Shown: piece after piece, positions 10,701-47,138 of the stretch
Layout: each line of letters starts with the position of its first letter
How positions within the stretch are numbered: position 1 is the first letter of the stretch
Source: an uncultured Clostridia bacterium
GTDB lineage: Bacteria > Bacillota > Clostridia > TANB77 > CAG-508
Direction: 5' to 3'
Assembly (NCBI GenBank): GCA_947628835.1
Contig: CANRBL010000001.1
Location: 1,618-65,617 of the forward strand
DNA: 64,000 nt
Notes under the pieces: model-generated
The model's database searches: none
Told to the model about the DNA's origin: nothing
The model's input: the letters and a program-made list of their open reading frames with translations, nothing else
Program-made: the position numbers and the translations under genes

Positions 10701-10882
10701 ATAAAATATATAATTTTGAAAAAAGCGCATTGAAAATAATTAAGCTAGAAATTCTAAAAAATTTTATGGAAAGAGTTCACGTAGCGAAGCGAAGTGGAAG
10801 GGTGCCATAAAATTTTTTTTAGAATTTCTTTGAAAATTATTTGAACGAGCATTTTTGAGAAATATATATTTTATTTCAAAAA
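10701..10882. repeat. palindromic intergenic repeat element, family 1, copy A (inverted relative to copies B and C)
   Basis: ~180-bp element with long imperfect inverted arms (agaaattctaaaaaattttatgg / ccataaaattttttagaatttct) around a conserved core; reverse complement nearly identical to 15243..15422 and 46966..47138. Confidence 0.7.
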
Positions 10883-10940
10883 GAATTTCAGTAAATTTCA
10901 ATTTTATTTATATTACTTAAAAATTTCTATTGTAACAATA

Positions 10941-11813
10941 TCATTTCCGTTTTTTAGTCGCCATATATTGTATATCTTTAACTATAAATCTAGCTTTTCC
11001 TCTAATATTTACTAAATCCCCTTCATTTACTATTTTTGAAGGTTTTACTTCTGTTTGGTAATTTATATATACCTTTTCTTTTTTTAACATTTCCACAGCA
11101 ACTGTTCTTGAACACTCAGCAACAGTTGATACTAAATTATCAATTCTCATAGATGCAACAACAATTTGTTTTCTTTGCATATTAATATTTAATCTGCGCA
11201 AACGATTAATATTTTCTAAAACTATTTCAGCTCTTGAAAATCTCTTTAATGAATTTAAGTTTTGTAATAAAAACTGAGATACTTCAGGGCAAATTATAAT
11301 ATCAGCTCCATCATCTGCAACAATTATATCTCCTATCTTTTCCCTTTCTATTCCCAATTTTATAACTCCACCTAAATACATTCTATGATTATATTGCCCT
11401 TTTAAATCTAATGGTAAATTTATTTTTACAACCTGCATAGTTTTTGAAATATATTTTTTAACAATAAACTCTTCTGTATCTTGTGGATATACAATAAGCA
11501 TCTTTCTTTCCGCTTCTTGAAAACCTCCTGTAAACACAAATTGGTTAAACTCTATTTTTTGTAATAATTTTTCTATAATTCCAATTTGATATACATCTAA
11601 AAAATTAGTATTCATTAATTTATTATTCTTTTTCATTAAATTAATTTTGTCTAAAACCTTAGATATTAACAACTTATCTTCTTGCTTTGAATAGCTATCT
11701 ATTATATCATGCTTTTCCACTTTTAATTCCTTTCTAATTATCCAATACACACTTTTTATAACTATACTTATTATAATGCTATATTTTTCAATTATTGCAC
11801 AAATAATTAACAT
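10941..11813 (-). CDS. ylmH: YlmH-like RNA-binding S4-domain protein
   Basis: C-terminal S4 motif (MRIDNLVSTVAECSRTVAVEMLKKEKVYINY); true start probably downstream of the annotated ATG. Confidence 0.5.
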   Translation of the reverse strand: MLIICAIIEKYSIIISIVIKSVYWIIRKELKVEKHDIIDSYSKQEDKLLISKVLDKINLMKKNNKLMNTNFLDVYQIGIIEKLLQKIEFNQFVFTGGFQEAERKMLIVYPQDTEEFIVKKYISKTMQVVKINLPLDLKGQYNHRMYLGGVIKLGIEREKIGDIIVADDGADIIICPEVSQFLLQNLNSLKRFSRAEIVLENINRLRRLNINMQRKQIVVASMRIDNLVSTVAECSRTVAVEMLKKEKVYINYQTEVKPSKIVNEGDLVNIRGKARFIVKDIQYMATKKRK

Positions 11814-12454
11814 GTAACTAATACTATCATTATAAACATTGACATTGGCACTGTTAAATTATCTGTTCCCTTAATAGATACAGCTTCACATAAAGTTGCA
11901 ATTATACTAATTATCACAGCTTTAAATAACCATAAACTTATTCCTAATGAAAATAAATATATTGATACTAAAATTAATGTTGTAATAAACATAGCAGTTG
12001 AACCCATTAATGATTTTGATGAATTTCCTATCTTATAAGTTGGACTTTTTACTGCTTTTCCAACTACTGCCGCTAACCCATCTCCTAAAGCCAAAACTAA
12101 AGTTGGAATTAAACCTAATATTGGTCTTTTAAACACTCCAAATGAAAATATAGATAATATTAATAATGAAATTGCAAAATACACTGTACCTAATCCTTCA
12201 TTTTTTTCTCTTTCCATAACTTTTATTAAATTATATTTATAAGATAAATAATTTATTATAACAAATGTCGCAGGTGCAATTGATGCCCATATAACATTAT
12301 TAAAAAATATCATTGCTATAACCCACCAAAATCCTAAAAATATATGTATAAATTTTCTACTTGCTTCTGTACCAAATTTTTCTACTTTTTTTGAAATAAT
12401 TATTAGAAAAAATACAAAAATATATGATAATACCAATCCTACAAAATTATTCAT
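11807..12454 (-). CDS. polytopic membrane protein, CTP-dependent polyprenol/diacylglycerol kinase (DolK/VTE5-like) family
   Basis: RKFIHIF and GDGLAAVVGK motifs characteristic of the cytidylyltransferase-like kinase family; 6-7 TM helices. Confidence 0.45.
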   Translation of the reverse strand: MNNFVGLVLSYIFVFFLIIISKKVEKFGTEASRKFIHIFLGFWWVIAMIFFNNVIWASIAPATFVIINYLSYKYNLIKVMEREKNEGLGTVYFAISLLILSIFSFGVFKRPILGLIPTLVLALGDGLAAVVGKAVKSPTYKIGNSSKSLMGSTAMFITTLILVSIYLFSLGISLWLFKAVIISIIATLCEAVSIKGTDNLTVPMSMFIMIVLVTC

Positions 12455-12614
12455 TTACTCCTCCATTTATTACCTTTTTATAAATTTTATAATATCTTAT
12501 CATATAATTACTATAAATTCTACAAAATATAAAATTTTTTTGTTATATTGACATACTAATATTTTAGAAATAAAATAATATTGTTTTAATAAATTTATTA
12601 ACGGAGGTTTTATT

Positions 12615-13547
12615 ATGTCATTAGTTACAACAACAGAAATGTTTAAAAAAGCTATGGAGGAAAAATTTGCAATAGGTGCATTTAATGTTAACAATATGGA
12701 AATTATACAAGGAATTGTAGATGCTGCTGCTGCTGAAAATTCACCTGTAATATTACAAGCATCATCTAGTGCTATAAAATATGCTAGAATTAATTACCTA
12801 ATGAAACTAGTTGAAGCTGCAACAAGCGAATATCCTAATATTCCAATTGCCATTCATTTAGACCATGGACCTGATTTTGAAACATGTAAATTATGTATAG
12901 ATAATGGATTTACATCAGTTATGATTGATGGTTCAAAATATGATTTTGAAGAAAATATTGCATTAACAAAGAAAGTAGTAGATTATGCACATTCAAAAGG
13001 AGTCGTAGTTGAAGCAGAACTTGGAAAATTAGCAGGAATTGAAGATGATGTTAATGTATCTGATTCTGATGCAATGTACACAGATCCAGAGCAAGCTGAG
13101 CAATTTGTAAAAGCTACTGGTTGTGATTCTTTAGCAATTGCAATTGGTACAAGTCATGGTGCTTATAAATTCAAAGGTGAAGCAAAATTACGATTTGATA
13201 TTTTAAAAGAGGTAAAATCAAGAATTCCTAACACACCAATAGTATTACATGGTGCTTCTACTGTTATACCTGAACTAGTAGAAATGTGCAATAAATTTGG
13301 TGGAAATATTCCAGGTGCAAAAGGCGTTCCTGATGAAATGTTGCATGAAGCTAGTATATCTGGTGTTTCAAAAATAAATGTTGATACAGATTTAAGGCTT
13401 GCTATGACTGCTGGAATAAGAAAAGTATTTACAGAAGAACCAAATGCTTTTGACCCTAGAAAATATCTTACACCTGCTCGTGAATTAATAAAAAATACTG
13501 TACAACACAAAATTAAAGATGTATTTTGTTCTTCAAACAAAGCATAA
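12615..13547 (+). CDS. fba: class II fructose-bisphosphate aldolase
   Basis: AIGAFNVNNMEIIQGIVDAA...HLDHG...GTSHGAYKF, Zn-dependent class II FBA. Confidence 0.9.
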   Translation: MSLVTTTEMFKKAMEEKFAIGAFNVNNMEIIQGIVDAAAAENSPVILQASSSAIKYARINYLMKLVEAATSEYPNIPIAIHLDHGPDFETCKLCIDNGFTSVMIDGSKYDFEENIALTKKVVDYAHSKGVVVEAELGKLAGIEDDVNVSDSDAMYTDPEQAEQFVKATGCDSLAIAIGTSHGAYKFKGEAKLRFDILKEVKSRIPNTPIVLHGASTVIPELVEMCNKFGGNIPGAKGVPDEMLHEASISGVSKINVDTDLRLAMTAGIRKVFTEEPNAFDPRKYLTPARELIKNTVQHKIKDVFCSSNKA

Positions 13548-13570
13548 ATATCTGAAAAATCTATTGTTTT

Positions 13571-13606
13571 AGGAAAGTATGTTATATTACTTTCCTATTA
13601 TTTTGT
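13571..13606 (+). terminator. rho-independent terminator of fba
   Basis: AGGAAAGTA / TACTTTCCT stem followed by ATTATTTTG. Confidence 0.6.
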
Positions 13607-13650
13607 CGAATTTTGCGATGAAAATTTTAAATTTTTTGTCAAATATTATT

Positions 13651-13685
13651 GACATATTTTTCCAATGCTATTATACTGGAAATAT
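13651..13685 (+). promoter_or_regulatory. near-consensus sigma-A-like promoter
   Basis: TTGACA - 17 nt - TATACT; lies ~240 nt upstream of the Rpn-like ORF, so its target is unclear. Confidence 0.3.
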
Positions 13686-13921
13686 CAAATTATATAATTT
13701 TGTTGTAACAACAATATATTTTTTCTATTTTTAGTTCAGTAATTTTTTTTCTTACTAACTATTTATAATAGTAATTAATTTCAAAACAAATTATGTTTTA
13801 TATCATTGTTACATTCTACCAAGAGTTAACTCTATAAATTTATTTTGTTGAATACAATTTCATATTCAATAATAAAAAAGGAGGTGCATAGTTTTAGTTT
13901 TATACTATTAAACTATATTAA

Positions 13922-14557
13922 ATGAACAGAAAACTAATATCAAAAAGTAATTTTGTATTAAGAAAAGTCATAAATAAAATTGAATGTATAGATATTATAA
14001 AAGACTTCATTGAAAGTATTTTACAGATAAAAATAAATTCTATAACATTAAATCCTTATTTATCACATATGGCAAAATATTTACCTTCGGAAGATAATTT
14101 TGGAATAGCAGATGTTAGAATTATAACAAATGATAATATTGAATATAATGTTGGAATTCAATTCATTGATGGATATTATGTGCAAAATAAATTATTATTG
14201 TATTATGCACAAATTCACGCAAATCAATTACAACATCAAAACTATAACAATACTGTAAAAACTATTACTATAAATATTTTAGATTTTGATTATTTTAATT
14301 CTAATACTTACAATAAAACTATAAAAATTAGAGAAAGTACTAATAGTGAATTTAATGAAGATATTGAATTACACGTTATAGAACTATCAAAATTTCGCAA
14401 TCAAAAAAATACAATTTCAAATAAAGAAGATGCTTGGATTGCATATTTAGATGGAAGTAATGAAAAATTAACAGACTATGCAAAAAACAATTTCGAATAT
14501 ATAAAAAAACTTGACAACTGCTTAGAAAATTACTGGGTAAATGAAACTATGGAATAG
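13922..14557 (+). pseudogene. Rpn/PD-(D/E)XK nuclease (transposase_31)-like ORF, probably disrupted, part 1
   Basis: weak family resemblance (GIADVRI...NVGIQF...LLLYYAQI...IELSKF); in-frame TAA immediately upstream of the ATG; nearest Shine-Dalgarno is 35 nt away. Confidence 0.35.
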
Positions 14558-14634
14558 GAGGTGTTTCAATCCATTTATCTTATAACAATTCTGATAAATT
14601 AAAAGATATTTTTATTGATTTAAATAATAAAAAT

Positions 14635-15165
14635 ATGATAATTACTTTGCTAATCTCTGTATTAAATTTAGATATTATTGATTTTAAATTTATTGATATA
14701 AAAAGCCTAAAAAATATTGCTGAATATCAATTTTCGCTATTAAAATGTGTATGTACTTTATCTAATTTAGAAACTCTTGATATATATTTGCGTATTATAA
14801 AAAAAGGAAAAATTAAAGAATCACTATTTTGCTATTGGTATTTATTATATGAAGAACAAGCTAGTAAATTTTCTAAAAAAGACATTTTTTCTTCTATTGT
14901 TAATAAAGCATCAATTTCAGATATATACTCAGAAAAGTACAAAAATAGCGTATTTTTAGAAATAGAAAATAATACTACTGATATTTTAAAATTTGGTACA
15001 GAAGTACATTTTATAGATTTTGTGAAATACATTGAATATAACAAAACTCAAAAACCAGAATTGAAAAATTGGCTAAATTATATAGATAAATCATCAAGCG
15101 ATTTTTTAATGATAGGCTTAGTATCAAATAAAAGTGCAAATAATAATATTATTTCTATTATTTAA
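14635..15165 (+). pseudogene. Rpn-like ORF, part 2 (frame-shifted continuation)
   Basis: reading frame is open from ~14546 and overlaps the end of part 1 in another frame; no RBS at the annotated ATG; similar N-terminal motif (LISVLNLDIIDF). Confidence 0.3.
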
Positions 15166-15242
15166 TTATTATTTTTTAATTGATATTTTTTATATAATAG
15201 GGAACTACATAAAACTTTTTTTAGTTTTACAATATAAATTGA

Positions 15243-15422
15243 AAAAAATATATAATTTTTCAAAAATGCTCGTTCAAATAATTTTCACAGAAATTCTAAA
15301 AAAATTTTATTGCACCCTTCCATGACAAGCGTGAACTCTTTCCATAAAATTTTTTAGAATTTCTAGCTCAATTATTCTCAATGCGCTCGCTTTTTTCAAA
15401 ATTATATATTTTATTTCAAAAG
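15243..15422. repeat. palindromic intergenic repeat element, family 1, copy B
   Basis: near-identical to 46966..47138 and to the reverse complement of 10701..10882; core ggcacccttccatgacaagcgtgaactctttcc. Confidence 0.7.
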
Positions 15423-15546
15423 AAATGTCTATACGTTTCCTATTATATAAAATTTATTGTATAGAAATTTACTATGTAAATTTTTCTTACATTGATATAT
15501 ATAAATTATTTATTTTTGAACAATTTATATATATCAATGACTTATT

Positions 15547-17829
15547 CTAATGTGCATCTGTTAAAGTTTGCTTTAATGTAACAGTTATTACTGTTCCTTC
15601 TTCTACTGTATCTCCTATCGCATAATCTTGACTTATTACAGTTCCTTCACTACCACTTATTGCTATATTTAAATTTTTAGATTTTAACGAATTTTTTGCT
15701 TGTGCAATTGTCATACCTTTTAAATCAGGTACATCTACTGATGTTCTAGTTGTATTTTCTGTAGAATACAATTTTATAATTGAATCTGTAAATAATTTTG
15801 TTCCTGCTTTTGGTACTTGTTCCATAACTAATAGCGAATCTTCATTTCCTGTTACAGAAATTTGTACATCAAATCCATATGAAGATAAAATTTTCTTTGC
15901 TTCTGTTACTGTTTTATTTGTTACATCTGGTAAAGTTACTGTTTTACTATCTTGATTAGAGTTTTCTGTTGCATCTGATGGAACACCTAAATATGGTAAA
16001 ATATCTGTAAGCATTTGTGAAACAACTGGTGCTGCAATTTGACCACCTTGATGTTTTCTCTCTTTAGGAGGATCATAAAGTGTTACTAATATAACAATTT
16101 CTGTATTTTCTACTGGAGATACTCCAATAAATGATGCTACATATCCTTCATCAGAATTTTCTCCAATTGGTTCTGATGTTCCTGTTTTTCCTCCTACTGA
16201 GTACCCATCCACTGCTGCATTTCCTCCTGTACCCTTCGTTACATCATATTCCAAAAGATTTTTCATTTTTTCTGATGTTTGCTTTGAAATAACTTGTCTA
16301 ACTTCTTTAGTTTCAACTGTTGTAACTGCTCCAGTTTTTGCATTTGTTATTTCCTTTACTATTCTAGGTTGCATTAAAACTCCATCATTTACTATTGCAG
16401 ATACTGCTGTAACAAGTTGAAGTGGTGTAATCTTAATACGCTGACCAAATGACATAGTTGCAAGTTCTACTGGTCCAACATTTTCTAAATTATGGAATAT
16501 ACTTTTAAATTCTCCCGATAACCCTATTCCCGTTTTATCAAAAAATCCAAAAGCCTTATAATATTTATATAATGTTGTTGCTCCTATTCTTTTTCCTAAT
16601 TGCATAAAAGCAGGATTACAAGAATTACCAAAAGCTTCTTTTAAAGTTTGTTGACCATGTGGATTTGCTCTCCAACATTTTATTGGTGTTCCACTAACAT
16701 TTTCTACTCCTGTGCATATGAAATCATTTGGTACATCAGTATCAGTTATATTTTCTTCTAATGCAACTGCTGCTGTAATTATTTTAAATGTAGACCCTGG
16801 CTCATATGTATCTGAAATTGATTTTCCATTCCACATTAATTGCAATGCATCTCTTTGTTGTTCATCTGTCAAAGTATCCCATGTTGTTTTTAAATTTTCA
16901 GATGGAACATAAGGATTATTTAAGTCATAATCTGGATATGAAGCCATTGCCAAAATATCCCCTGTAGATGGTTGCATTACAATTACATTTCCTCCCTTTG
17001 AACAGCTATTATCCTGTACAGCTTGTTTTAAGTACTTTTCTACAATTGACTGTATCTTCATATCTATAGTCAATGTTATATTACTTCCATCTTGTGCTTC
17101 TATATATTTTTCTTGAGAATTTGGAATTTCAGACTGACTTCCTCCCTTTGCACTTACTAATTTACCATATGTACCTGTCAATACAGAATCCCATGAATAT
17201 TCTATACCACTTAAACCTTGATTATCACTTCCACAAAATCCTATCAATTGAGAAGCCAAGTTATTATTTGGATAATATCTTTTTGAATCTTCATCTATGT
17301 TTATTCCAACTTTTATTTCATTTTCTTCCATCCATTTTTTTAACTCATCTACTTTATCTTGTTCTACCTTTTTTATTATTGTTTGTACTGACGATTTAGT
17401 ATTTTGTACTTTTGTCAAGGTCTCCTGATAGTCTAAGCTAAATATGCTTGACAGTCCTTGTGCTATTAATTCCTGATACTTTATTGTATCTTCCTCTTTT
17501 TCTTTAATAAATTTTGATGGATTTATTGTTATAGTATCTACCTGTTCACTAATCGCCAACGATTTTCCTGTAGTATCATATATATTTCCTCGCTTTGGAC
17601 TTATTATTTGATTTATTGCCTGTTGCGAATATGCTAATTCTTTAAAACGCGTACCATCTACAAATTGTATTACTCCTATTCTTATAATCAATGCAAATAG
17701 TGCTACATATGTTGCTACTGTAATTATTTTTACTTTTTTTCTTGATATTGTATTTTTCACATTATAATCATTTTTTATTTCATTTTTTTTATTTTTATAT
17801 TTCACAATGTTTTTATGTTTTTTATTCAT
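15547..17829 (-). CDS. penicillin-binding protein (SpoVD/PBP2B-like transpeptidase with two PASTA domains)
   Basis: PBP dimerisation and transpeptidase domains (STFK active site at GSTFKIITAA); two C-terminal PASTA repeats. Confidence 0.8.
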   Translation of the reverse strand: MNKKHKNIVKYKNKKNEIKNDYNVKNTISRKKVKIITVATYVALFALIIRIGVIQFVDGTRFKELAYSQQAINQIISPKRGNIYDTTGKSLAISEQVDTITINPSKFIKEKEEDTIKYQELIAQGLSSIFSLDYQETLTKVQNTKSSVQTIIKKVEQDKVDELKKWMEENEIKVGINIDEDSKRYYPNNNLASQLIGFCGSDNQGLSGIEYSWDSVLTGTYGKLVSAKGGSQSEIPNSQEKYIEAQDGSNITLTIDMKIQSIVEKYLKQAVQDNSCSKGGNVIVMQPSTGDILAMASYPDYDLNNPYVPSENLKTTWDTLTDEQQRDALQLMWNGKSISDTYEPGSTFKIITAAVALEENITDTDVPNDFICTGVENVSGTPIKCWRANPHGQQTLKEAFGNSCNPAFMQLGKRIGATTLYKYYKAFGFFDKTGIGLSGEFKSIFHNLENVGPVELATMSFGQRIKITPLQLVTAVSAIVNDGVLMQPRIVKEITNAKTGAVTTVETKEVRQVISKQTSEKMKNLLEYDVTKGTGGNAAVDGYSVGGKTGTSEPIGENSDEGYVASFIGVSPVENTEIVILVTLYDPPKERKHQGGQIAAPVVSQMLTDILPYLGVPSDATENSNQDSKTVTLPDVTNKTVTEAKKILSSYGFDVQISVTGNEDSLLVMEQVPKAGTKLFTDSIIKLYSTENTTRTSVDVPDLKGMTIAQAKNSLKSKNLNIAISGSEGTVISQDYAIGDTVEEGTVITVTLKQTLTDAH

Positions 17830-17947
17830 ATAATCACCACTTTTGTATTTTATCTTATTTTATATTTACCATATAAAAAAGTCAATAAAATACTTTAATT
17901 TTATTACTATTTAAGTTACAATTCACAGTTTATAAATAAAAACGTTA

Positions 17948-18083
17948 TTAACTAATTAACTTTTAAGTAAGTGCGTAAGCGATCAACCGTAGTGAAACGA
18001 AGGGCGATTGGAGCAACTTACATACTATTTTTTATATTATGGAAGTTGCGACACACAAACTTACTTAAAAGTTAATTAGTTAA
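17948..18083. repeat. palindromic element with perfect 25-bp terminal inverted repeats
   Basis: ttaactaattaacttttaagtaagt ... acttacttaaaagttaattagttaa flanking an 86-bp GC-richer core related to the family-1 core (ccgtagtgaaacgaagggcg). Confidence 0.7.
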
Positions 18084-18128
18084 GAACTCTATAATATTTG
18101 ACTTGTAACCTATTTAAGGAGGATTTTT

Positions 18129-19698: not shown

Positions 19699-20700
19699 AT
19701 GATAATTAATTATGAAGATTCTAATTTTCCAATTTCTTTACGCAATATTCCCAATGCACCTAAACAGTTATATGTAAAGGGAAACATTAATTTATTAAAT
19801 TCTATCGGTATTGCAATTATAGGTTCTCGAAATTGTACTGATTATGGGAAAAAAATGTGCGAATATTTTACAAAAAAACTAACCCAGTATGGATTAACTA
19901 TAATTAGTGGAATGGCTGTTGGTATTGATGCCATTTCTCATATTACCGCAATCAAAAATAATGGAAAAACTATTGCTGTTTTACCCAGTGGTTTTAATCA
20001 TATTTTTCCTAAGGAAAATATTAATCTATTTGAAGATATTATTAACTCTGATGGTTGTATTGTTAGTGAATATTCACCTGATATTTATGCTTCATATAAT
20101 AATTTTTTAAAACGAAACAGAATTGTTAGTGGTTTAGCAATAGGCACTTTAGTAATTGAAGCAGGATATAGAAGTGGTACTACTGTTACTGCTAGACTAA
20201 CTAATCAGCAAGACAAAAAAGTATTCTGTGTTCCAAGTAACTTAGATAATCCTAAGGGAATCAGCACAAATACTTTAATACAAAAGGGTGCTTTTTTAGT
20301 TACTTGTGCAGAGGACATTCTAAAACAAATTCCTGACTTAAATATTAATATTATTAATGAAAAGAGAAATCATTTTATAGATAATACCTCTGATTCTAAG
20401 TACAATTCTTATACTAATACTAACATTAATTCTAATATTAATCCCAATATTAATTCTAATATTAATTCTAATATTAATTCTAATATTAATTCTAATAATA
20501 TTTCTAATAATATTAATTTTAAAATTAATCCCAATCTTTTAGACATTTACAATCTTATTAGTAATGAACCAATTGATATTGATGATATTATACGTCTATC
20601 TAATTTAAGTATTAATGAAGTTAATTATAAACTTACTATGCTTGAACTTGAAAATTTGATAATACAATTGCCAGGAAAACAATTTATTTTAAAAAATTAA
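19699..20700 (+). CDS. dprA: DNA-processing protein DprA (Smf)
   Basis: IAIIGSRNCTDYGKK Rossmann-like DprA core; contains an in-frame N/I/S-rich repeat insertion before the C-terminal domain. Confidence 0.85.
   Translation: MIINYEDSNFPISLRNIPNAPKQLYVKGNINLLNSIGIAIIGSRNCTDYGKKMCEYFTKKLTQYGLTIISGMAVGIDAISHITAIKNNGKTIAVLPSGFNHIFPKENINLFEDIINSDGCIVSEYSPDIYASYNNFLKRNRIVSGLAIGTLVIEAGYRSGTTVTARLTNQQDKKVFCVPSNLDNPKGISTNTLIQKGAFLVTCAEDILKQIPDLNINIINEKRNHFIDNTSDSKYNSYTNTNINSNINPNINSNINSNINSNINSNNISNNINFKINPNLLDIYNLISNEPIDIDDIIRLSNLSINEVNYKLTMLELENLIIQLPGKQFILKN
20423..20520 (+). repeat. in-frame 12-bp tandem repeat (aatattaattct)n inside dprA
   Basis: about 7 tandem units encoding NINS/NINP repeats, seen directly. 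Confidence 0.85.
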
Positions 20701-32745: not shown

Positions 32746-32820
32746 TGGCTGGGGTACTAAGATTCGAACTTAGGAATGCTCGGGTCAGAGCCGAGTGCCT
32801 TACCGCTTGGCGATACCCCA
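32746..32820 (-). tRNA. tRNA-Gln (anticodon CTG)
   Basis: cloverleaf TGGGGTATCGCCAAGCGGTAAGGCACTCGGCTCTGACCCGAGC...GTTCGAATCTTAGTACCCCAGCCA, anticodon loop CTCTGAC, encoded CCA; missed by the ORF track. Confidence 0.85.
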
Positions 32821-32950: not shown

Positions 32951-33045
32951 CGGAAAGCCTTAATATTTCACTAATTTTTTTATTTTTCTTTGGCTTTCCG
33001 TAAATTTGTTCTTGCGCGAAATTCACATAGTGAATTTCTGTGCAA
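32951..33045. repeat. palindromic repeat module, family 2, copy 1
   Basis: CGGAAAGCC...GGCTTTCCG inverted repeat plus perfect palindrome gaaattcacatagtgaatttc inside ttcttgcgcgaaattcacatagtgaatttctgtgcaa; ~40 nt near-identical to 48003..48045. Confidence 0.6.
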
Positions 33046-33151
33046 TTAGTTTTATATAATAGGAAATGTCAGTATGACTTTCCTATTATATAAAAAAAAC
33101 AGACTTCTCATCTGCTTTTTTTATATATAGGATTTTTTATGTTAAACATTT

Positions 33152-36229: not shown

Positions 36230-37543
36230 TCAATTATTATAACCAGGTTTTTCTAATAATTTAAACATATTTTTCTTATATTCTTCTACTCCTGGTTGAT
36301 TAAATGGATCAACTCCCAATATCATTCCTGATACTGCACATGCTTTTTCAAAGAAATAGATTAAATGACCTATAGTTTCTTCATTTAGTTTTTGCATATT
36401 AATCATAATATTAGGTACATCTCCAGATATATGTGCTTCAACAGTACCTTCCATAGCCTTTTTATTTACATAGTCTAATTCTTTACCTGCTAAATAATTC
36501 AATCCATCTAAATTATTTTCATCAGAATTTATTAAAATATTAGAGTTTGGTTCTTTTATGTTTATAACAGTTTCAAATAAATTTCTTCTTCCATCTTGTA
36601 TATATTGACCCATTGAATGTAAATCTGTAGTAAATTCTACACCTGCTGGAAATATTCCTTTCTTTTCTTTTCCTTCACTTTCTCCATATAATTGTTTCCA
36701 CCATTCTGTAAAAAAGTGCATTTTAGGTTCATAATTTACTAAAATTTCTATATTTTTTTCTGATTTATATAATATATTTCTTGCTACTGCATATTGATAA
36801 CATTCATTATATTTTAATTTACTATCTTCATATTTGTACTGTGCTACTCTTGCTCCTTCCATCAATTTATCTATATCTATTCCTGCTACTGCTATTGGCA
36901 ATAATCCCACTGCTGTTAATACTGAATATCTACCTCCTATATTATCTGGTATAACAAATGTTTCATATCCTTCCTCATCAGCTAAGGTTTTTAATGCTCC
37001 CCTTTGTTTATCAGTAGTAACAAATATTCTTCTTTGGGCTTCTTCTATTCCATATTTATTTTCTATCATTTCTCTGAATATTCTAAATGCAATTGCTGGC
37101 TCTGTTGTAGTTCCTGATTTAGATATTACATTTATAGAAAAATCTCTATCCCCTATTATTTCTATTAAATCATTTATATAGTTAGGACTTAAATTATTTC
37201 CAACATATAATATTTGAGGATGTTTCCTTTTCTTGTATGGTAACATATTATAAAACGTATTTGTTAAAGATTCTATAACTGCTCTTGCACCTAAATATGA
37301 ACCACCTATTCCAATTACTACTAATACTTCTGAATTTTCTACTATTTTTTCTGCTGATTTTTTTATCTTATTAAATTCTTCTTTATCATATTTACTTGGC
37401 AATTTTAACCAGCCTACAAAATCATCTTCTTTGTCTGCCCTTTCATTTAATTCTTTGTGTATGCTTTCTACAGTTTTACTGTATTCCATAATTTCCTTTT
37501 GCTCAATTCCACTATTTTTTAAATCAATCTTAACTTCAAACAT
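36230..37543 (-). CDS. pgi: glucose-6-phosphate isomerase
   Basis: [15 protein letters not shown]-domain motif and PGI family length. Confidence 0.85.
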
Positions 37544-37747
37544 ATAACCACACTCCTTTTTTTATTATAGAAATTACATCTTGCATATGCAATTTTTATA
37601 TGTTCATTATATATAACTATAATAAATATTGCAAGATAAAAATAAAAACTATACTATTTTGTAGTTACAAGTTAATGGTTTTTAATAGATAAATTACTAA
37701 AAACATTATATGTTACACGTTAATGGTTTTAAAAGGATAAATTTCTA

Positions 37748-38033
37748 AAAGCATTGAAATATAAGATTTTCACTACATTCCTCGGCTCTTTACAAAGCTT
37801 AAGAACTTCTAACTTATTTTATGGCACCCTTTCACTCAACGCGAACTATTTCCATAAAATTGCGTAGAATTTCTAAAGTTTTTCCAAGTTCTAGACAATT
37901 GCGTGCAATTGTCGTAGAAATTGGTTATGCGAAAATTAGATTTTCTTATGGCAAAGCCATATAGAAAATCTTAATTTCGTTTTTCCAATCACATTCGTCA
38001 TTTCATTCAAATTCTTATATTTCAATGCTTTTT
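37748..38033. repeat. nested palindromic element (family 1-related core inside outer inverted repeats)
   Basis: outer inverted repeat gcattgaaatataaga / tcttatatttcaatgc; inner palindrome gaaaattagattttct...agaaaatcttaatttc; core ttatggcaccctttcactcaacgcgaac resembles the family-1 core. Confidence 0.6.
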
Positions 38034-38157
38034 TAAGTATATTGCACAGAAACCATTATATAGTAACGCATTATATTATAAATTTAAAAATAACTCTTTA
38101 AATTACATTAATTTTGTAGTATAATATAATTATATTGAGTGAAAGGAATTTTAAATT

Positions 38158-38607
38158 ATGTGGAAATTATGGTTAATAGCTTCTGGAATATTTTTTATAG
38201 GTGAAATGGTCACAGTTGGTTTTTTAATATTTTGGCTTGGAATTGGTGCATTACTAGCAATGGTTGCCAGTTTCTTTACTGATAATATTATAATTCAGAC
38301 AACAATTTTTGTTATTTCTTCTGGATTACTTATTTTTGCCACAAAACCTTTTGTAAAAAAATTTGCAAAAAGTAAAAATCCTATTAATACCAATGTATAT
38401 TCAATAATTGGCAAAAAAGGTATTGTTATAGAAGATATTAATCCTAGCAAAAGTTGTGGACAAATTAAAATTGCAGGTGAAGTATGGTCTGCTACATGCG
38501 ACGAAAATTTGACTATAGAAAAAGGTACTGAAATAGAAGTTTGTGAAATTAATGGTGTAAAAGCATATGTAAAGCCTATAAATGTAGTAGTTACTAAAGA
38601 TAATTAA
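38158..38607 (+). CDS. NfeD-family membrane protein (short form)
   Basis: two TM helices plus a C-terminal OB-fold; immediately upstream of an SPFH gene, the classic nfeD-SPFH pairing. Confidence 0.7.
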   Translation: MWKLWLIASGIFFIGEMVTVGFLIFWLGIGALLAMVASFFTDNIIIQTTIFVISSGLLIFATKPFVKKFAKSKNPINTNVYSIIGKKGIVIEDINPSKSCGQIKIAGEVWSATCDENLTIEKGTEIEVCEINGVKAYVKPINVVVTKDN

Positions 38608-39754: not shown

Positions 39755-39792
39755 CATATTTTTATTTTACTTTTTATGTAACATTTTCTTTT

Positions 39793-40551: not shown

Positions 40552-40659
40552 TTTTTATTCCTCCCTATTATTTAATTATATTATTATTTCTATTTTTTAT
40601 TATAATTTTATAATTATAAATCCCAATTACGCAATATCCATTATTATATTACAGTTATG

Positions 40660-41700
40660 TCAATAATTATTTAAATTTTTTCGTCTTAATTGACCACATG
40701 CTGCATCTATATCTGAGCCTAATTCTCTCCTTATAGTAGCAACAATTCCATGTTCATTTAAATAATCTCTAAATTTAATTATATTTTCATTATCACTTTT
40801 TATATATTTTCCATTTTCTATTTTATTAATTGGAATTAAATTAACATGACATATCATTCCTTTTAATAAACTAACTAATTTTTTTGCATCTTCAATATTA
40901 TCATTGTTATCTTTTGCTAATGCATACTCAAAAGATATTCTTTTATTTGTTATTTTTATATAATCTTTACACGCTTGTAATAATTGCTCTATATTATATA
41001 CATCATTTATTGGCATCATACTACTTCTTTTTTCATCTGTTGTTGCATGTAATGATATAGATAATGTGCATTGTATATTTTCGTTTGCTAAATCATATAT
41101 TTTTGGTACTATACCACTTGTTGATATGCTTATATGTCGTGCTCCTATATTAAGACCTTTTGGATTATTAATAATTTTTATTGCATTTACTACATTATCA
41201 TAATTATCTAATGGCTCTCCAATTCCCATAAAAACTATATTAGATATTTTTATATTTTCTTCTCTTTCCACTGCAAGAAGCTGTTCAACTATTTCGCCAC
41301 TTGTTAAACTTCTTATAAATTTTATTCCTGTTGAGGCACAAAATTTACAGCCCATTTTACAACCAATTTGTGAAGAAACACATATACTATATCCATGATG
41401 ATATTTCATTAATACCGTTTCTATTGCATTTCCATCTAATGTATCAAATAAATACTTTTTTGTTCCATCTGATGCTTCTTGTTTTTTTATTATTTTAAAT
41501 ATACACATTGTAAAATTATTTTTTAATTTTTCTCTTAACTCTAATGATAGATTTGTCATATTATCAAAATTTATTTCCTTTTGTTCATATATCCATTTAA
41601 ATACCTGCTCTGCTCTAAATGGTTTTTCTCCTAATTTAATAAATTCTTCTTTTAGTTCATTCAAATTATAGTCCTTTATATTCTTCACGTTGACCTCCAT
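40660..41700 (-). CDS. rlmN: 23S rRNA/tRNA adenine-C2 methyltransferase (radical SAM)
   Basis: CKMGCKFCAST radical-SAM cluster motif and RlmN length. Confidence 0.85.
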   Translation of the reverse strand: MEVNVKNIKDYNLNELKEEFIKLGEKPFRAEQVFKWIYEQKEINFDNMTNLSLELREKLKNNFTMCIFKIIKKQEASDGTKKYLFDTLDGNAIETVLMKYHHGYSICVSSQIGCKMGCKFCASTGIKFIRSLTSGEIVEQLLAVEREENIKISNIVFMGIGEPLDNYDNVVNAIKIINNPKGLNIGARHISISTSGIVPKIYDLANENIQCTLSISLHATTDEKRSSMMPINDVYNIEQLLQACKDYIKITNKRISFEYALAKDNNDNIEDAKKLVSLLKGMICHVNLIPINKIENGKYIKSDNENIIKFRDYLNEHGIVATIRRELGSDIDAACGQLRRKNLNNY

Positions 41701-41785
41701 TTTACATTATATACCTACATATTTTTTAGACCTAACAACTTGCAACATATTTTTACTTCATATATAATAATTAAATTTAAATGTA

Positions 41786-43597
41786 TTACTCATCATTTAG
41801 TTTTAATACAGATAAAAATGCCTCTTGTGGTACTTCTACATTCCCTATTTCTCTCATTTTTTTCTTTCCTCTTTTTTGTTTTTCCAATAACTTTTTCTTT
41901 CTCGTTATATCTCCTCCATAGCATTTTGCAAGTACATCTTTTCTCATTGCAGATATTGTTTCTCTTGCTATAATTTTTCCACCTATCATTGCTTGAATTG
42001 GTATTGTAAATAACTTTCTTGGAATTACTTCTTTTAATTTTTCTACCATTTTCTTTCCTCTGTTATAGCTACTATCTTTATGAACTATAAATGATAATGC
42101 ATCAACTTGCTCTCCATTAACATATATATCTAATTTTACTAAATCTGACTTTCTATATTCTTTAAACTCGTAATCAAATGAAGCATATCCTTTTGTTTTT
42201 GATTTTAAATTATCAAAAAAATCATATATAATCTCATTTAATGGCATATCATATATTAATGTTACTCTATTTGCATCTAAATATTTCATATCAATATATA
42301 TACCTCTCCTATTTTGGCATATTTCCATTACATTGCCTACATATTCTTTTGGTGTTAAAATTTGTGCTGTTACAATAGGCTCTTCTATATATGCAATTTC
42401 ATTAGGTGTTGGTAAATCTGCTGGATTGTATATTTCTAATATTTCGCCTGTTGTTTTATGCAATTTATATATAACTGATGGTGCTGTTGTAATTAGACCT
42501 AAATCAAATTCACGATCTAACCTTTCTTCTATTATTTCTAAATGTAACAATCCCAAAAATCCACATCTAAAACCAAATCCTAATGCAGCAGATGTTTCTT
42601 GCTCATATTGTAATGCTGCATCATTTAATTTTAGTTTTTCTAAAGCAATTTTTAAATTTTCATATTCACTTCCGTCCATTGGATATAACCCGCAATAAAC
42701 CATAGGAACGACTTTTTTATACCCTTTTAGTGGCTCTTCTGCTGGATTACTTGTTACTGTTATTGTATCTCCTACATGTATGTCTGATAGTGTTTTTATA
42801 CTTGCAGCTATATATCCAACTTCTCCTGCTTTTATTTCATTTGTTGGCATATATGAACCAGGTACAAAATATCCTACTTCAGATACAGTAAATACTTTGT
42901 TTGTTGCCATAAGTTTTATTTCATCTCCAACTTTTACCTTGCCATCTACTACTCTAACATATGCTATTGCTCCTTTGTAATTATCATAATATGAATCAAA
43001 TATTAAACATTTTGTTTTTGCATTTTCATCTCCATTTGGTGCTGGTAAATCTGTTACTATTCTTTCTAATACTTGTTCAACATTTAACCCAGATTTTGCT
43101 GAAATACATGGTGCATCTTGCGCAGGTATTCCTATAATATCTTCAATTTCATTTTTTACCTCTTCAGGTCTACTATTTGGTAAATCTATTTTATTTATAA
43201 CTGGTAATATCTCTAAATTATTATCTATTGCTAAATATACATTTGCTAATGTTTGTGCTTCTACTCCTTGGCTTGAATCTACAATTAAAATTGCTCCATC
43301 ACATGCTGCTAAACTTCTTGATACCTCATAATTAAAATCAACATGCCCTGGAGTGTCTATTAAATTAAAAGTGTATTCTTTGCCATCTTTTGCTTTATAT
43401 TTCATTCTTACAGCTTGAGATTTTATTGTAATTCCTCTTTCTTTTTCTATATCCATATTGTCCAAAACCTGAGATTCCATCTCTCTTTTTGATAATACTC
43501 CTGTCATTTCTATTAATCTATCTGCTAAAGTAGATTTTCCATGGTCTATATGTGCTATTATACTAAAGTTTCTTATATATTTTTGTCTTTCTTCCAT
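41786..43597 (-). CDS. lepA: elongation factor 4
   Basis: [22 protein letters not shown]-domain and LepA-specific C-terminal domain. Confidence 0.9.
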
Positions 43598-43732
43598 TTT
43601 TAATTCCTTTCTTAAAGCATAACTTTATTTATTCTGCTACACTTCTTTCCATAATATATTTTTATATATTCTTCGTAAAAAGCACCATTGTCATTTTTTT
43701 GTACTGAACCTTTTATATTTTATCTTATGTTT

Positions 43733-44323
43733 TTAAAATTGTCTTATTTGTTCTAAATTTAACTTTCCGCCACATTTGCTACATATATATTTTTGTATTA
43801 AATCTTTTTTTAACCTTTTTCTATATATAACTTGTCCACATTTTTTACATATAATTTTATATTTATAGTCATTACTTTCTTTTTTATATGGTAAATTACT
43901 TTTTTTATAATCTTCTTCTTTATTTCCTACTGTTTTTATATCATAACCTAGTTTTTTATTTATGTAATTTGCATATTTTTTAAATTCTTTTCCATGGTTA
44001 TTACAATTTGGTAAACAATGTATAATTTCATGCATAACAGTATTTTTTATTATGTCTTCATTAAGTTCTAATACCCATTTACTAATTTCTATATGATGTT
44101 TTTTAAATCTATCATATTTTTTATATTTTTTCCTTCCTCGTTTTTCTATATGATAATATTTTTTATCTGGTTCCTCTTGCTTACAACACCCATATCTTTT
44201 TGCATCTCTTTTGGCTAGTTTTATATCTACATTTCCTATTAAAGGATTGTCTTTGATATTTATTTCTACTGTTCTTAATTCTTCTATACATTTATTATAT
44301 ATATCTTTTAGCTTTTCTTCCAC
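43733..44323 (-). CDS. SprT-like zinc metallopeptidase-fold protein with C-terminal zinc ribbon
   Basis: HEIIH motif and C-terminal CxxC...CxxC (CKKCG...CSKCGG). Confidence 0.55.
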   Translation of the reverse strand: MEEKLKDIYNKCIEELRTVEINIKDNPLIGNVDIKLAKRDAKRYGCCKQEEPDKKYYHIEKRGRKKYKKYDRFKKHHIEISKWVLELNEDIIKNTVMHEIIHCLPNCNNHGKEFKKYANYINKKLGYDIKTVGNKEEDYKKSNLPYKKESNDYKYKIICKKCGQVIYRKRLKKDLIQKYICSKCGGKLNLEQIRQF

Positions 44324-44348
44324 TTTAAACCTCTATTTTTATGATTTT

Positions 44349-45074
44349 TTACATATCTTTACTAATACTTTTTAATACATGCTTTGTTGTATTGCTTTTA
44401 TCTAATTTATTGATTATTAATATTATTATTGCAACTATTATTAATATTACTAAATATAACATAATACTCATCTTCCAATCACCATTTACTAAATTATGTC
44501 CTGCAAGTGTTGATGTTATAACTGATGGAAATCGTGCAAATGTTGTAATTATTACAAATCTAATTGGTTTTATTGGTAACAAACCTGCTACATATACTAA
44601 TAAATCCTTTGGCGTCCCTGGTATTAAAAATAATATGAGCATAATAAATTCTATTGTTTTTGGATTTTGAAATATTTTATTGTTTTCTATCTTTTTTACT
44701 TTATTTTCATCACAAAAATTATATATAAATTTTCTTCCAAATTTTCTAACTAATAAAAATATTGATGTTGATATTAAACAACTTGATATCATAATAAATA
44801 TTGTTCCCCAAAAACTTCCATAGCACATTCCTGCTACTATTTCTATAGGCTCGCCTGGTAATATTATTAAAAATATTTGTGCAATTTCCATTCCTAATAA
44901 TAATAACATTCCTAAAATTCCCAAACTTTGTACCTTATTTTTAAATTCTACTTGTCCTTCGGCTGATGATAGATTTTTCATTAAAGGAAATAAATATATA
45001 ATCATTGCTATGATTATTGCTAATGCAATTATTGTCAATATTATTTTAAATATTGCTACATTTTTTTTCTTCAT
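44349..45074 (-). CDS. TVP38/TMEM64 (DedA-related) family membrane protein
   Basis: VAGLLPIKPIRFVIITTFARFP motif typical of YdjX/YdjZ-like proteins. Confidence 0.7.
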   Translation of the reverse strand: MKKKNVAIFKIILTIIALAIIIAMIIYLFPLMKNLSSAEGQVEFKNKVQSLGILGMLLLLGMEIAQIFLIILPGEPIEIVAGMCYGSFWGTIFIMISSCLISTSIFLLVRKFGRKFIYNFCDENKVKKIENNKIFQNPKTIEFIMLILFLIPGTPKDLLVYVAGLLPIKPIRFVIITTFARFPSVITSTLAGHNLVNGDWKMSIMLYLVILIIVAIIILIINKLDKSNTTKHVLKSISKDM

Positions 45075-45154
45075 CTTATCCCTTCTTTTTTTACTTTCAT
45101 ATTATATAAATAAATCTAGCTTAATATATTATTAAACTAGATTATTTATATCTA

Positions 45155-45694
45155 TTAATAATTTTCTGCCTTGATTTCAAAATATGCTTGAGGGTGATTG
45201 CATACAGGACAAACTGCTGGTGCTTCTTTTCCTATACATATATGTCCACAATTTCTACATTTCCAAATTTTATCTCCATCTTTAGAAAATACTAATTCAT
45301 TTTCTACATTCTCTAATAATTTTTTAAATCTTTCTTCATGTTCTTTTTCTATTTTTCCAACTTGTTCAAATAAATATGCTATTTTATCAAAACCTTCTTC
45401 TTTTGCTTCTTTAGCAAATTTTTCATACATATCTGTCCATTCATAATTTTCTCCATCAGCAGCTGCTTTTAAATTTTGAACTGTTGTAGGAATGTTTCCA
45501 TCATTCAATAATTTAAACCACATTTTTGCATGTTCTTTTTCATTATCTGCTGTTTCTAAGAATATTGCTGATAATTGTTCATATCCTTCTTTCTTTGCTT
45601 GACTAGCAAAATATGTATATTTATTTCTTGCTTGTGATTCTCCTGCAAATGCTTCCATTAAATTTTTTTCTGTTTTACTTCCTTTTAATCCCAT
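45155..45694 (-). CDS. rbr: rubrerythrin
   Basis: ferritin-like diiron domain ([10 protein letters not shown] ... EKEH) plus C-terminal rubredoxin-like CxxC...CxxC. Confidence 0.85.
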
Positions 45695-45766
45695 TTAAAT
45701 TTCCTCCTTAATTATTTCATATATTTTTGTTTATTTTATCATATTCTAAAAAAAAGTCAATACTTT

Positions 45767-46165
45767 TTAACTTTTTGTATTAGTATTAACGCCTATTATT
45801 CCCCCTATTATTCCACATATCATTCCTGTAATAATTACTACTAAAGAACTTCCATTTAGTGAAAAATTTGAATTGATTATACTTGATATTATATATATTG
45901 AAAATAAATATATAATCCCTATAATACCACCTTTTATAATACCATTTTTATTACTTTTTAAATTTCCAATAGAACTTCCTATTAAAATACTAATTGCTGT
46001 TATAACAATTATAACTGGACTTATTATACTTTCACTTATATTAGTATATGTTAATATAACTGATAATACTAATAGAAATATGATTGTAAATATAAATGAT
46101 ATAATAACTCCTTTTACTATGCCCATAATATTGTTGCTTTGTTTAGCTCCTGAATATAATTCCAT
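45767..46165 (-). CDS. small Gly/Ile-rich integral membrane protein
   Basis: four predicted TM helices with GGIIG motifs; family unclear. Confidence 0.35.
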   Translation of the reverse strand: MELYSGAKQSNNIMGIVKGVIISFIFTIIFLLVLSVILTYTNISESIISPVIIVITAISILIGSSIGNLKSNKNGIIKGGIIGIIYLFSIYIISSIINSNFSLNGSSLVVIITGMICGIIGGIIGVNTNTKS

Positions 46166-46239
46166 ATATCCTCCCTATAAATATAAATTTATATTTATAT
46201 ATTTATTATCTTTTTTTATTTTTAGAACATTATTTTTTA

Positions 46240-46818
46240 TTAATATAAATTAATTAACTTTTTTTCTAATTCCTCTATAAAATTTATTATTATTTCTTCT
46301 CTTATAAAATTTTTATTATATTCTTTTTTTAAAGATGTTGCTATATTTATTGTTTCTTCACTAAAATTACATTCATTAACATTAAATCCTATACTAATAA
46401 TTAAATAGTTTATTTTTTCTCCTATGCAGTTTATTTCTGTTAATATACCACTAATTTTTTTATTATTTAATATTAAATCATTTGGTTCTTTGATTTCTAA
46501 ATTTATATTATATAATTTTTTTATTACAGTTTGCATTGTTTTTGCAATTTCAACTGTTAGTCCTTCAAGTTTATTTAATTTACAGTTTATATGTAAAATC
46601 ATAGACATTGCTATATTATTGCCTTTTCCTGTGTACCAATTTCTCCCCTTGGTTCCTATTCCATTTGTTTGCATATCTGCTATTATTATTTTTCCATTTT
46701 GATTTTTTTCATTCGCTATTTCTTTTGCTTTTATATGTGTTGAATTTATTTCTTCATAATATTCTATAATTTTTCCTAAATATTTTGTTTTTGCATTTTT
46801 TATTTTTTCTATATCCAT
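46240..46818 (-). CDS. birA: biotin--[acetyl-CoA-carboxylase] ligase (catalytic domain only, no HTH)
   Basis: GIGTKGRNW (GRGRxGRxW-like) motif, BPL_LplA_LipB fold, ~190 aa. Confidence 0.7.
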   Translation of the reverse strand: MDIEKIKNAKTKYLGKIIEYYEEINSTHIKAKEIANEKNQNGKIIIADMQTNGIGTKGRNWYTGKGNNIAMSMILHINCKLNKLEGLTVEIAKTMQTVIKKLYNINLEIKEPNDLILNNKKISGILTEINCIGEKINYLIISIGFNVNECNFSEETINIATSLKKEYNKNFIREEIIINFIEELEKKLINLY

Positions 46819-46965
46819 AATTACATCTAGTCCTTTCTCTATTATAAATTAATTTAAAAATTATTTTTCTTATTTATATATTTTAAGGCATTTAAAATTT
46901 TTATGCAATATTTAATTCTATATACTAGGAAAGATTATGAAACTCTAATTTTTCAATTCTATGTA

Positions 46966-47138
46966 AAATAAAATATTATTTTTTCAAAAATGCTCGTTCA
47001 AATAATTTTCACAGAACTTCTAAAAAAATTTTATGGCACCCTTCCACGACAAGCGTGAACTCTTTCCATAAAATTTTTTAGAAGTTCTAGCTTAATTATT
47101 TTCAATGCGCTTTTTTCAAAAATATATATTTTATTTCT
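46966..47138. repeat. palindromic intergenic repeat element, family 1, copy C
   Basis: near-identical to copy B (core ggcacccttccacgacaagcgtgaactctttcc); abuts the stop of the DUF1540 ORF. Confidence 0.7.

Follow-up and report, generated by a model that had tools for sequence, protein, structure and literature searches.

Probable foldback transposable elements with a near-invariant hairpin tip in uncultured gut Clostridia

The described elements that come closest to the repeats characterized here are bacterial MITEs (transposable elements of the miniature inverted-repeat type) with hairpin bodies and functional centres, such as the Correia, ERIC, RUP and BOX elements, followed by the REPINs. 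Correia elements (CREE/NEMIS) of Neisseria are 100-155 bp long, are associated with a TA duplication and carry a duplex IHF site at their centre. ERIC (or IRU), RUP and BOX elements of enterobacteria and streptococci are imperfect palindromic intergenic repeats of ca. 100-130 bp or more that occur with internal insert variants and whose autonomous partner is absent or not known. We analyzed a stretch of 64,000 nucleotides from an uncultured Clostridia bacterium (assembly GCA_947628835.1, contig CANRBL010000001.1, positions 1,618 to 65,617), here called the window, for which an original prediction made from the letters alone had proposed a family of ca. 180-bp palindromic intergenic elements with a conserved, non-palindromic core. 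The family is real and occurs in both orientations, as proposed, at four core-bearing loci instead of the five or more that had been claimed. As the best explanation, to which we assign a probability of about 0.6, we propose that these elements are non-autonomous foldback MITEs whose arms co-evolve, whose centre inverts and whose tip is recognized in the folded state.

Three of the four copies, those starting at 10701, 15243 and 46966 (Table 1), are near-identical as predicted. Pairwise identities range from 86 to 98% over 58-166 nt and all three were recovered independently as repeat families (D3, 166 nt and 88%; I1, 84 nt and 98%; I4, 58 nt and 97%). The fourth locus, flagged previously as a diverged relative at 37748-38033, carries a genuine core (GGCACCCTTTCAC..CGCGAACTATTTCC). 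Each core half is found four times in the window compared with 0.37 and 0.69 occurrences expected by chance, and the density of core-bearing copies is four per 64 kb. A further relative that had been proposed at 17948-18083 does not belong here, since it contains no core match and showed no similarity to the family by arm-based profile search or BLAST. The gene contexts of all five sites had been assigned correctly (GNAT/YlmH; a PDDEXK_2 pair beside a SpoVD-like penicillin-binding protein (PBP); PGI/NfeD; DUF1540/LplA-like; PBP/ComM).

The assignment to the MITEs is made with fair confidence because terminal inverted repeats (TIRs), target-site duplications (TSDs) of fixed length, here 8 bp, dispersed copies and filled versus empty orthologous sites were all looked for and found. 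The elements are also short, at 155-500 bp, and no open reading frame (ORF) spans them. Loci compared with the window are labeled with L-numbers (L001 etc.). Paralogues of what we call the E type, four of them from one metagenome-assembled genome (MAG; L007, L018, L035, L050) and two from others (L098, L101), are near-identical and alike well beyond the 180-bp centre. Their similarity ends at GTTACAATTCACAG... and ...CTGTGAATTGTAAC, for a total of ca. 500 bp, and beyond these points the flanks have nothing in common apart from 8-bp direct repeats (TTGAAAAT in L098, GGTTTTGT in L101, and seven of eight matching positions in L007 and L018). Perfect 8-bp duplications (TATTTTAG and AAATGAAA) likewise accompany the GTAACTATTyAG ends of L031 and L060. 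Subfamily A has the terminal inverted repeat GTTACAnGTTAATGG, found at window position 37712, in L078 and in L032, and its window copy is complete, with GTTACACGTTAATGG at one end, ...ATAGTAAC at the other and CATTATAT on both sides. A blind scan for an inverted terminus with an 8-bp duplication identified 9 of 102 copies, L031 and L060 among them, versus 0-5 in shifted controls, while a scan anchored on GTWAC ends identified 8 of 102 versus 0-2 in controls; a target-site duplication is recognizable in ca. 8-12 of the 102 core-bearing copies. The original prediction had suggested looking for such duplications, and they are present in a subset of copies, in the window at 37712-38067 and at 17915-18109.

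The latter is the site of the discounted relative. There, the exact E-type terminus at 17915 reveals a 195-bp coreless element with a perfect CTATTTAA duplication, whose terminal inverted repeat GTTACAATTCACAG is all that it has in common with the core-bearing E subfamily. A metagenome scan for the 14-nt terminus returned mostly noise, in addition to AT-rich loci with complete elements that have the same ends and 8-bp duplications throughout. Among these are 155-bp elements (L165, L226; duplication AAAATTAC), a 254-bp element (L137; duplication TTTAGAAG), 214-bp and 167-bp elements (L221, L235) in which the non-palindromic centre of the 17915 element recurs in either orientation, and a 487-bp element that bears the core (L242). 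Judged by these termini, the core-bearing hairpins appear to be one body type within a MITE superfamily defined by its ends, and in several subfamilies they make up the middle of elements 250-500 bp in length. Solo terminal motifs were also noted. At L053 (ca. 1550-1900) one copy is bordered on either side by stacks of extra GCCAAGAGAGAAATAAA motifs and their complement, similar to the additional terminal copy at window 37664-37707.

Filled and empty states of the same site were seen in both directions. The spacer holding the 15243 copy in the window, which separates the PBP gene from the PDDEXK_2 gene (or from a small TSCPD gene in between), measures 27-67 bp and contains an ordinary hairpin in three species (L123, L126, L129); it is therefore an empty site, which argues against these genes being linked to the element. 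Between PBP and comM, L126 has a spacer of 111 bp and the window one of 300 bp. L014, L001/L031 and L053 carry copies at sites that are empty in the window, and the distant species L047 has a copy at the position of the 46966 copy.

A species-representative genome collection was scanned with a pattern of the two core halves spaced by 2-20 nt. More than 106 stretches among the matches listed contain the pattern, all of them from uncultured Clostridia, Clostridium or Eubacteriales MAGs. The hosts were sampled from the gut of human (Hadza, Nepal), rabbit, goat and mouse, and one complete 1.55-Mb chromosome is included. At least 39 assemblies, as counted by accession prefix, are represented among the first 80 loci, several of them with 7-12 matches each. 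Copies are thus spread over dozens of gut Clostridia MAGs and are not confined to the window as a local duplication would be, and the proposed intergenic preference is borne out by all 101 scorable copies, which lie between genes. A phage or plasmid origin was rejected because the core is absent from a viral collection of 2.9 million contigs (zero matches). Against Rfam, using gathering and E-value thresholds, the elements gave only generic hairpin (miRNA precursor) matches far below threshold, so a known RNA family was rejected as well.

The orientation of the elements is random with respect to genes and to GC skew. Of the copies located in tandem gene pairs, 41 have a core pointing in the direction of the genes and 28 a core pointing against it; 19 further copies lie between convergent and 13 between divergent genes, which are roughly background proportions. 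The comparison with local GC skew gave 60 versus 45 copies (p = 0.17) and hence no bias relative to the replication strand.

For the 46966 copy, a single long and imperfect hairpin is predicted on each strand (-47.5 and -52.1 kcal/mol; z = -9.95 and -9.15), whose tip consists of a 4-bp stem (CACG/CGUG) above two unpaired 8-nt stretches. Modelled as DNA, the 37712-38067 element forms a fold that runs over its entire length (z = -7.3). Near-invariance is seen in the apical core, GGCACCCTTCCAC-(loop)-GTGAACTCTTTCC, whose loop varies in length. To characterize it, 109 copies were extracted and an alignment of 110 distinct copies (A2) was assembled, in which the columns GCACCCTT(C/T)CA and CG(T/C)GAACTNTTTCC are invariant by construction of the search pattern. 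Positions next to the pattern (TTTTATGG/CCATAAAA and AGAAATTCTA/TAGAATTTCT) are more than 90% conserved and the outer arms differ almost wholly between subfamilies. Between CAC and GTG, the apical insert varies from 4 to 13 nt and stem extensions compensate for each other, e.g. CACGCC-AAA-GGCGTG. Since a duplex-binding protein touching both halves could not be expected to tolerate such an insert, in contrast to a hairpin tip, the conserved tip most likely represents a module that is recognized when folded.

We carried out an arm-only profile search over 860 kb of loci to lessen the bias that results from selecting loci by their core. Among the 117 clusters obtained, 106 contain the canonical core, 4 have 3-5 core changes, a single one is half an element and the remainder run into the end of a locus; copies selected by their core had served to build the arm profiles, and the loci themselves were chosen by core. 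Elements found by their arms thus nearly always carry the canonical core, which does not vary freely among copies. That the core is more than part of a plain hairpin, as proposed originally, is backed by its conservation and by the compensating apical stem of variable length; it may act as a functional RNA or as a protein-binding site.

Covariation in the arms was assessed with a structure combining manually defined inner helices and a consistency alignment of the outer columns. Paired cells make up 83.1% versus 67.4% in shuffles, none of 500 of which reached the observed value, with the caveat that deriving the structure from A2 itself inflates this percentage and leaves two-sided changes unaffected. 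Such changes on both sides occur in 51 of 62 pairs, the covariation score is 0.36 versus 0.12 in shuffles, and sliding the partners by 1-3 columns as a control reduced pairing to 37-50%. Arm mismatches are mostly of the pyrimidine-pyrimidine type on the GCACCC strand, where they form conserved asymmetric internal loops, e.g. CTCGGCT opposite CACATTCG. Mismatches of the G-T (G-U) type are equally common on both strands (176 versus 154) and therefore do not single out either strand. A micro-ORF reading across the core on the reverse strand (MERVH...GRVP) was rejected, as it has no Shine-Dalgarno sequence, loses its ATG in variant stems and is put out of frame by 25 of 109 loop lengths. In three loci (L033, ca. 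7330-7960; L037, ca. 1880-2480; L073, ca. 6410-6830) copies sit exactly central in longer near-perfect palindromes with arms of at least 100 nt that hold G+C-rich direct repeats such as ACCAGTGGGGACACCC. These may be longer members of the family or insertions into another palindromic element.

Comparing the flanks of all copies yielded 26 pairs that share a locus. With the flanks as reference, the core points the same way in 15 of them and is inverted in 11, including pairs with flanks that are 92-97% identical (L005/L045, L105/L045, L023/L089, L024/L026, L006/L058). The inverted inner segment spans ca. 130-170 bp, its breakpoints fall into perfect internal repeats of 21-24 bp and the flanks are collinear. 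For L006/L058, the asymmetric outer part of the element is collinear as well and has not been flipped. Given that the perfect repeats are shorter than the k-mers used by assemblers, the inversions are unlikely to reflect assembly ambiguity. A core-only flip was not found in the 110-copy alignment, where asymmetric arm modules keep to the same side of the core in every row. Segments bounded by inverted repeats and present in both orientations are thus seen as a difference between species and not within a population. In the window, the flanks of two subfamily-B copies (10883-10936 and 15423-15445, family D17) are homologous to each other in direct orientation, although the centres of these copies run in opposite directions.

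Of 84 paired sites that have changed at shared loci, 55 show compensation. Single changes lacking compensation are typical of close pairs, whereas those of distant pairs are mostly compensated. The orthologues L017/L082 have outer arms that have visibly diverged from each other, with all 8 of 8 mapped changes at paired sites compensated, so that each element stays self-complementary. Arm co-evolution and flipping of the centre are observed as patterns, for which the simplest explanation would be arm-to-arm recombination or conversion that both homogenizes the arms and flips the centre. Selection for pairing may act instead of or in addition to arm conversion.

Based on these results, we propose the following sequence of events for elements that are native to a clade of uncultured, AT-rich gut Clostridia with small genomes. 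Elements with GTTAC-type terminal inverted repeats would be inserted by a putative transposase acting in trans, which produces the 8-bp duplications. The element body is probably one long imperfect palindrome, of which the ca. 180-bp repeats would be the centre. After insertion, the arms would evolve in concert via arm-to-arm recombination or conversion and so remain complementary in spite of sequence drift, and the same recombination would invert the central segment between the internal perfect repeats of 21-24 bp. At the tip, two 8-nt strands would form an internal loop below the CAC/GTG stem, topped by a free apical loop. This tip may be a cis module recognized in its folded form, as an extruded DNA hairpin or as RNA, by a putative factor. 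Because subfamilies with almost nothing in common in their arms retain the tip, it must presumably matter either for the element's own propagation or for the host. A strand-specific role in neighboring transcripts is made less likely by the random and flipping orientation. Persistence at shared loci in distant species leaves room for a host-level role.

Several findings weigh against this explanation. It is weakest in that no transposase was found and that only a small share of the copies has intact ends. Clear terminal inverted repeats together with target-site duplications are present in only about one tenth of the core-bearing copies, and the three subfamily-B copies of the window have no recognizable ends or duplications where their similarity stops. 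Termini differ between subfamilies, so that a single transposase is an assumption. No autonomous insertion sequence with matching ends was found by a search for TIR pairs in ca. 1.6 Mb of loci, where all candidate TIR-bounded intervals contain housekeeping genes, and in 120 metagenome loci. No gene recurs beside the elements either, whose neighbors are assorted housekeeping genes; RAYT or any other recurrent neighbor was rejected on these grounds, and the genes between paired elements encode an HD-domain-like protein, judged by eye from its translation, and an unrelated one. With regard to inversion, contigs of the window's strain from two to three other samples, in which the flanking proteins are identical, have the same orientation as the window and no flipped copy, the orientation of the 46966 copy being identical in two of them, and there is therefore no evidence of rapid switching within a population. 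Conservation of the core partly reflects the choice of loci by core pattern. Finally, many same-locus copies in species with flanks that are only 66-80% identical have an intact tip, which fits host-level selection as well as element-level selection.

This last point leads to the alternative that the repeats are host-serving structured elements, perhaps delivered by transposition and then kept either as hairpins of untranslated RNA regions (with a role as terminator, insulator or mRNA stabilizer) or as DNA sites, with the tip as the binding site of a host protein. The near-invariance of the tip across subfamilies whose arms are saturated with change speaks for this, as do the many copies at the same locus in distant species and the location of copies where relatives have ordinary terminator hairpins, e.g. 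at the PDDEXK_2/PBP site. Read on the reverse strand, the internal loop would moreover consist largely of purines (AAAGAGUU / GAAGGGUG), as is common for RNA loops that bind proteins, and there are two GGA motifs ca. 20 nt apart. However, the random orientation relative to genes and GC skew and the flips between relatives would switch a strand-specific RNA role off at random, G-U mismatches lack a strand bias, occupancy is patchy between species, and neither an Rfam match nor a conserved promoter or terminator signature was found. Consensus scans of the elements gave promoter-like matches that do not exceed shuffles and no terminators, so that an internal sigma-70 promoter or intrinsic terminator is not supported; a canonical terminator is present behind 9% of the genes that adjoin an element and 10% of the others, a comparison that is uninformative on terminator replacement. 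The terminator mimics suggested originally are neither supported nor contradicted. Look-alikes of sigma-54 and extracytoplasmic function (ECF)-type promoters, parS, dif/Xer, Chi and SRS, found by eye, were dropped due to wrong spacing or partial matches. We consider this alternative improbable on balance.

Flipping of the centre could also point to programmed invertible switches (invertons), in which a dedicated recombinase inverts the segment to switch neighboring genes, like RecV in Clostridioides difficile. Close relatives indeed have the central 130-170 bp in one or the other orientation at a given locus, between perfect inverted repeats of 21-24 bp whose length, like that of the segment, resembles RecV switches, and the asymmetric core always travels with its asymmetric arm modules. 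This is nonetheless very unlikely, as the flanking repeats differ between subfamilies and hence provide no common recombinase site, the surroundings lack a recurrent recombinase gene, a promoter within the elements was not detected, the few samples of one strain show no mixed orientation, and a flip would change little in an element that is nearly all palindromic. General recombination between the longest perfect arm stretches accounts for the breakpoints. Least probable of all, in our estimate, are elements of the REP/REPIN type, spread by a domesticated HUH (RAYT) transposase acting on single-stranded hairpins. HUH transposition produces neither target duplications nor terminal inverted repeats, both of which are present here, the conserved part is the tip and not the stem, no conserved GTAG/CGTC tag is found, and no flanked RAYT-like gene was seen among the neighbors examined. 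Long hairpins, intergenic location, vertical persistence and compensatory change are similar to those of REPINs (PMC3116915, PMC8266576). From the original characterization as REP/MITE-like, the MITE half is therefore retained in view of the inverted termini, 8-bp duplications, dispersal and filled or empty sites, and the REP half is not.

Foldback MITEs with a tip recognized in the folded state are thus our preferred reading. A bolder version of it, which we put forward tentatively and regard as rather unlikely, would make the tip a structure-specific recognition module, with an internal loop presented on an extruded DNA hairpin or RNA, that is bound by a conserved protein of the clade and spread by the MITE superfamily. 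Frequent inversion of the centre would then expose either its pyrimidine-rich or its purine-rich face.

The coordinates of all features are compiled in Table 1. The 92-bp insert in the subfamily-A copy contains two small hairpins, one of which resembles a tip that lacks the core (TTATGG-CAAAG-CCATA), and no further copy of it was found in the sequences compared except in the same-strain contig L113.

Table 1. Elements of the family and associated features in the 64-kb window
Feature	Position	Strand	Context and remarks
Core-bearing foldback copy, subfamily B	10701..10882	-	Between convergent GNAT (rimI-like) and ylmH genes; core 10768-10806
Possible outer frame of the 10701 copy	10883..10936	.	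TIR-like end ...CTATTGTAAC at 10936
Core-bearing foldback copy, subfamily B	15243..15422	+	Between convergent PDDEXK_2-like ORF and SpoVD-like PBP gene; core 15311-15343
Left perfect 8-bp TSD of coreless MITE	17907..17914	.	CTATTTAA
Coreless 195-bp MITE	17915..18109	.	Ends GTTACAATTCACAG ... GACTTGTAAC; 8 bp upstream of comM Shine-Dalgarno sequence
Right perfect 8-bp TSD of coreless MITE	18110..18117	.	CTATTTAA
Extra tandem copy of subfamily-A left terminal 44 nt	37664..37707	+	86% identical to 37712-37755 (family D18)
Left TSD of 37712-38067 element	37704..37711	.	CATTATAT; read directly from sequence
Complete subfamily-A element	37712..38067	+	Between divergent pgi and nfeD; TIRs GTTACACGTTAATGG... 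and ...CCATTATATAGTAAC; core 37823-37853
92-bp insert in right arm of subfamily-A copy	37888..37979	+	9-bp direct repeats TTTTTCCAA at 37879-37887 and 37980-37988
Right TSD of 37712-38067 element	38069..38076	.	CATTATAT; one extra base before; read directly
Core-bearing foldback copy, subfamily B	46966..47138	+	3' of small DUF1540 gene, 5' of LplA-like gene; core 47035-47067

A number of further observations concern the surroundings of the copies. A short repeat with TTTATATAATAGGAAAC, of ca. 40-50 nt and 87-95% identity, occurs in both orientations at window 15433-15483, 33019-33069 and 48001-48039. The first of these adjoins the 15243 copy and the other two lie at separate intergenic sites, while related stretches at ca. 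15190-15215 and ca. 10660-10685 flank subfamily-B copies and may correspond to an outer frame. The PDDEXK_2 genes at the 15243 copy belong to a conserved, syntenic chromosomal gene family whose neighborhood is element-free in three other species; a link between the elements and these Rpn-like genes was rejected, no homologue being present near other copies. Upstream of the PDDEXK_2 gene, four species have in common the motif TTTTGTCGAA(A/T)TTTGCG(A/G)T followed by TTGACA (window 13600-13655; L123, ca. 2745-2800; L126, ca. 2830-2870; L129, ca. 2730-2790), which by its sequence looks like a conserved operator and promoter of this gene. A 6S RNA gene (Rfam RF00013, 81.9 bits) lies directly beside the element in L017 (1224-1415, minus strand) and in the homologous part of L082, and a tRNA gene at 32749-32820 (minus strand) is the sole Rfam match at gathering score in the window. 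The window also contains a tandem array of ca. 3.3 copies of an 84-86 bp unit (92-95% identical) at 61233-61513, unrelated to the hairpin family, and 12-nt periodic or low-complexity AT-rich repeats at 20381-20540 and 24710-25044, which apparently fall within long ORFs and represent repetitive protein regions.

Rearrangements and assembly breaks were also noted at the elements. Compared with window 37543-38158, L112 (ca. 1060-1130) and L114 (ca. 650-720) encode an identical NfeD protein and have a D-Tyr-tRNA deacylase gene upstream instead of pgi; of the subfamily-A element, the junction shows no more than one arm-like fragment. This points to a rearrangement that broke in or at the element. 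Many contigs assembled from short reads of the window's strain (L107, L108, L111, L113, L115-L118) end within repeats, and the family therefore fragments assemblies of these genomes.

A literature search for the element, the TIR string and comparable Clostridia repeats returned no description of the family or its terminus. In conclusion, the window and its relatives point to a MITE superfamily that has apparently not been described so far, is characterized by GTTAC-type ends and 8-bp duplications and occurs in a little-studied lineage of uncultured gut Clostridia. It would be an otherwise ordinary kind of element, apart from its near-invariant tip of ca. 30 bases and a centre that is often flipped between related species. 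In practical terms, the elements break assemblies, sit at rearrangement points and insert beside ribosome-binding sites, and they offer a clean natural example of concerted evolution of palindrome arms combined with inversion of the palindrome centre. If the tip is bound by a host or transposon protein, it would provide a handle on folded-state recognition of foldback elements and would mark dozens of sites per genome in this clade at which that factor acts. Should it indeed be a recognition module, the elements would represent mobile, orientation-switchable regulatory or chromosome-organizing hairpins and not inert transposon cargo.

Among known systems, eukaryotic foldback (FB) transposons provide an analogy only, as they likewise have long inverted arms around a short asymmetric centre and differ in domain of life, size and arm architecture. 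The small clostridial inversion switches resemble our elements in flipping only: the RecV switches of C. difficile and gut invertons (PMC11892184) also have segments of 130-200 bp with inverted repeats of ca. 21 bp that are found in either orientation, yet these are few per genome, mutually unrelated, non-palindromic inside and served by a known recombinase, whereas the elements described here are many homologous copies, for which we found neither a recombinase nor a regulatory output. REPIN-RAYT systems (PMC3116915; PMC8266576) share with our family the long inverted-repeat hairpins, a prolonged retention at loci and compensatory evolution, and are set apart from it by each of the mechanistic criteria that we tested. 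REPINs keep the stem, vary the loop, lack duplications and need an HUH transposase, while here the tip is kept, the stem varies and duplications exist. Closer similarity is found to ERIC/IRU, RUP and BOX elements in palindromic body, intergenic location, insert variants and an autonomous partner that is absent or not known, from which our family is set apart by host clade and sequence, GTAAC/GTTAC ends, 8-bp duplications and a centre that flips at orthologous loci. Correia elements, like the present family, are small, non-coding, intergenic MITEs with terminal inverted repeats, present in many copies and both orientations; they form hairpins in transcripts and have a functional central site. 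Unlike them, the clostridial elements measure 180-500 bp, are flanked by an 8-bp duplication and are nearly all palindromic, with a centre that is not a duplex site but a hairpin tip with a variable loop.

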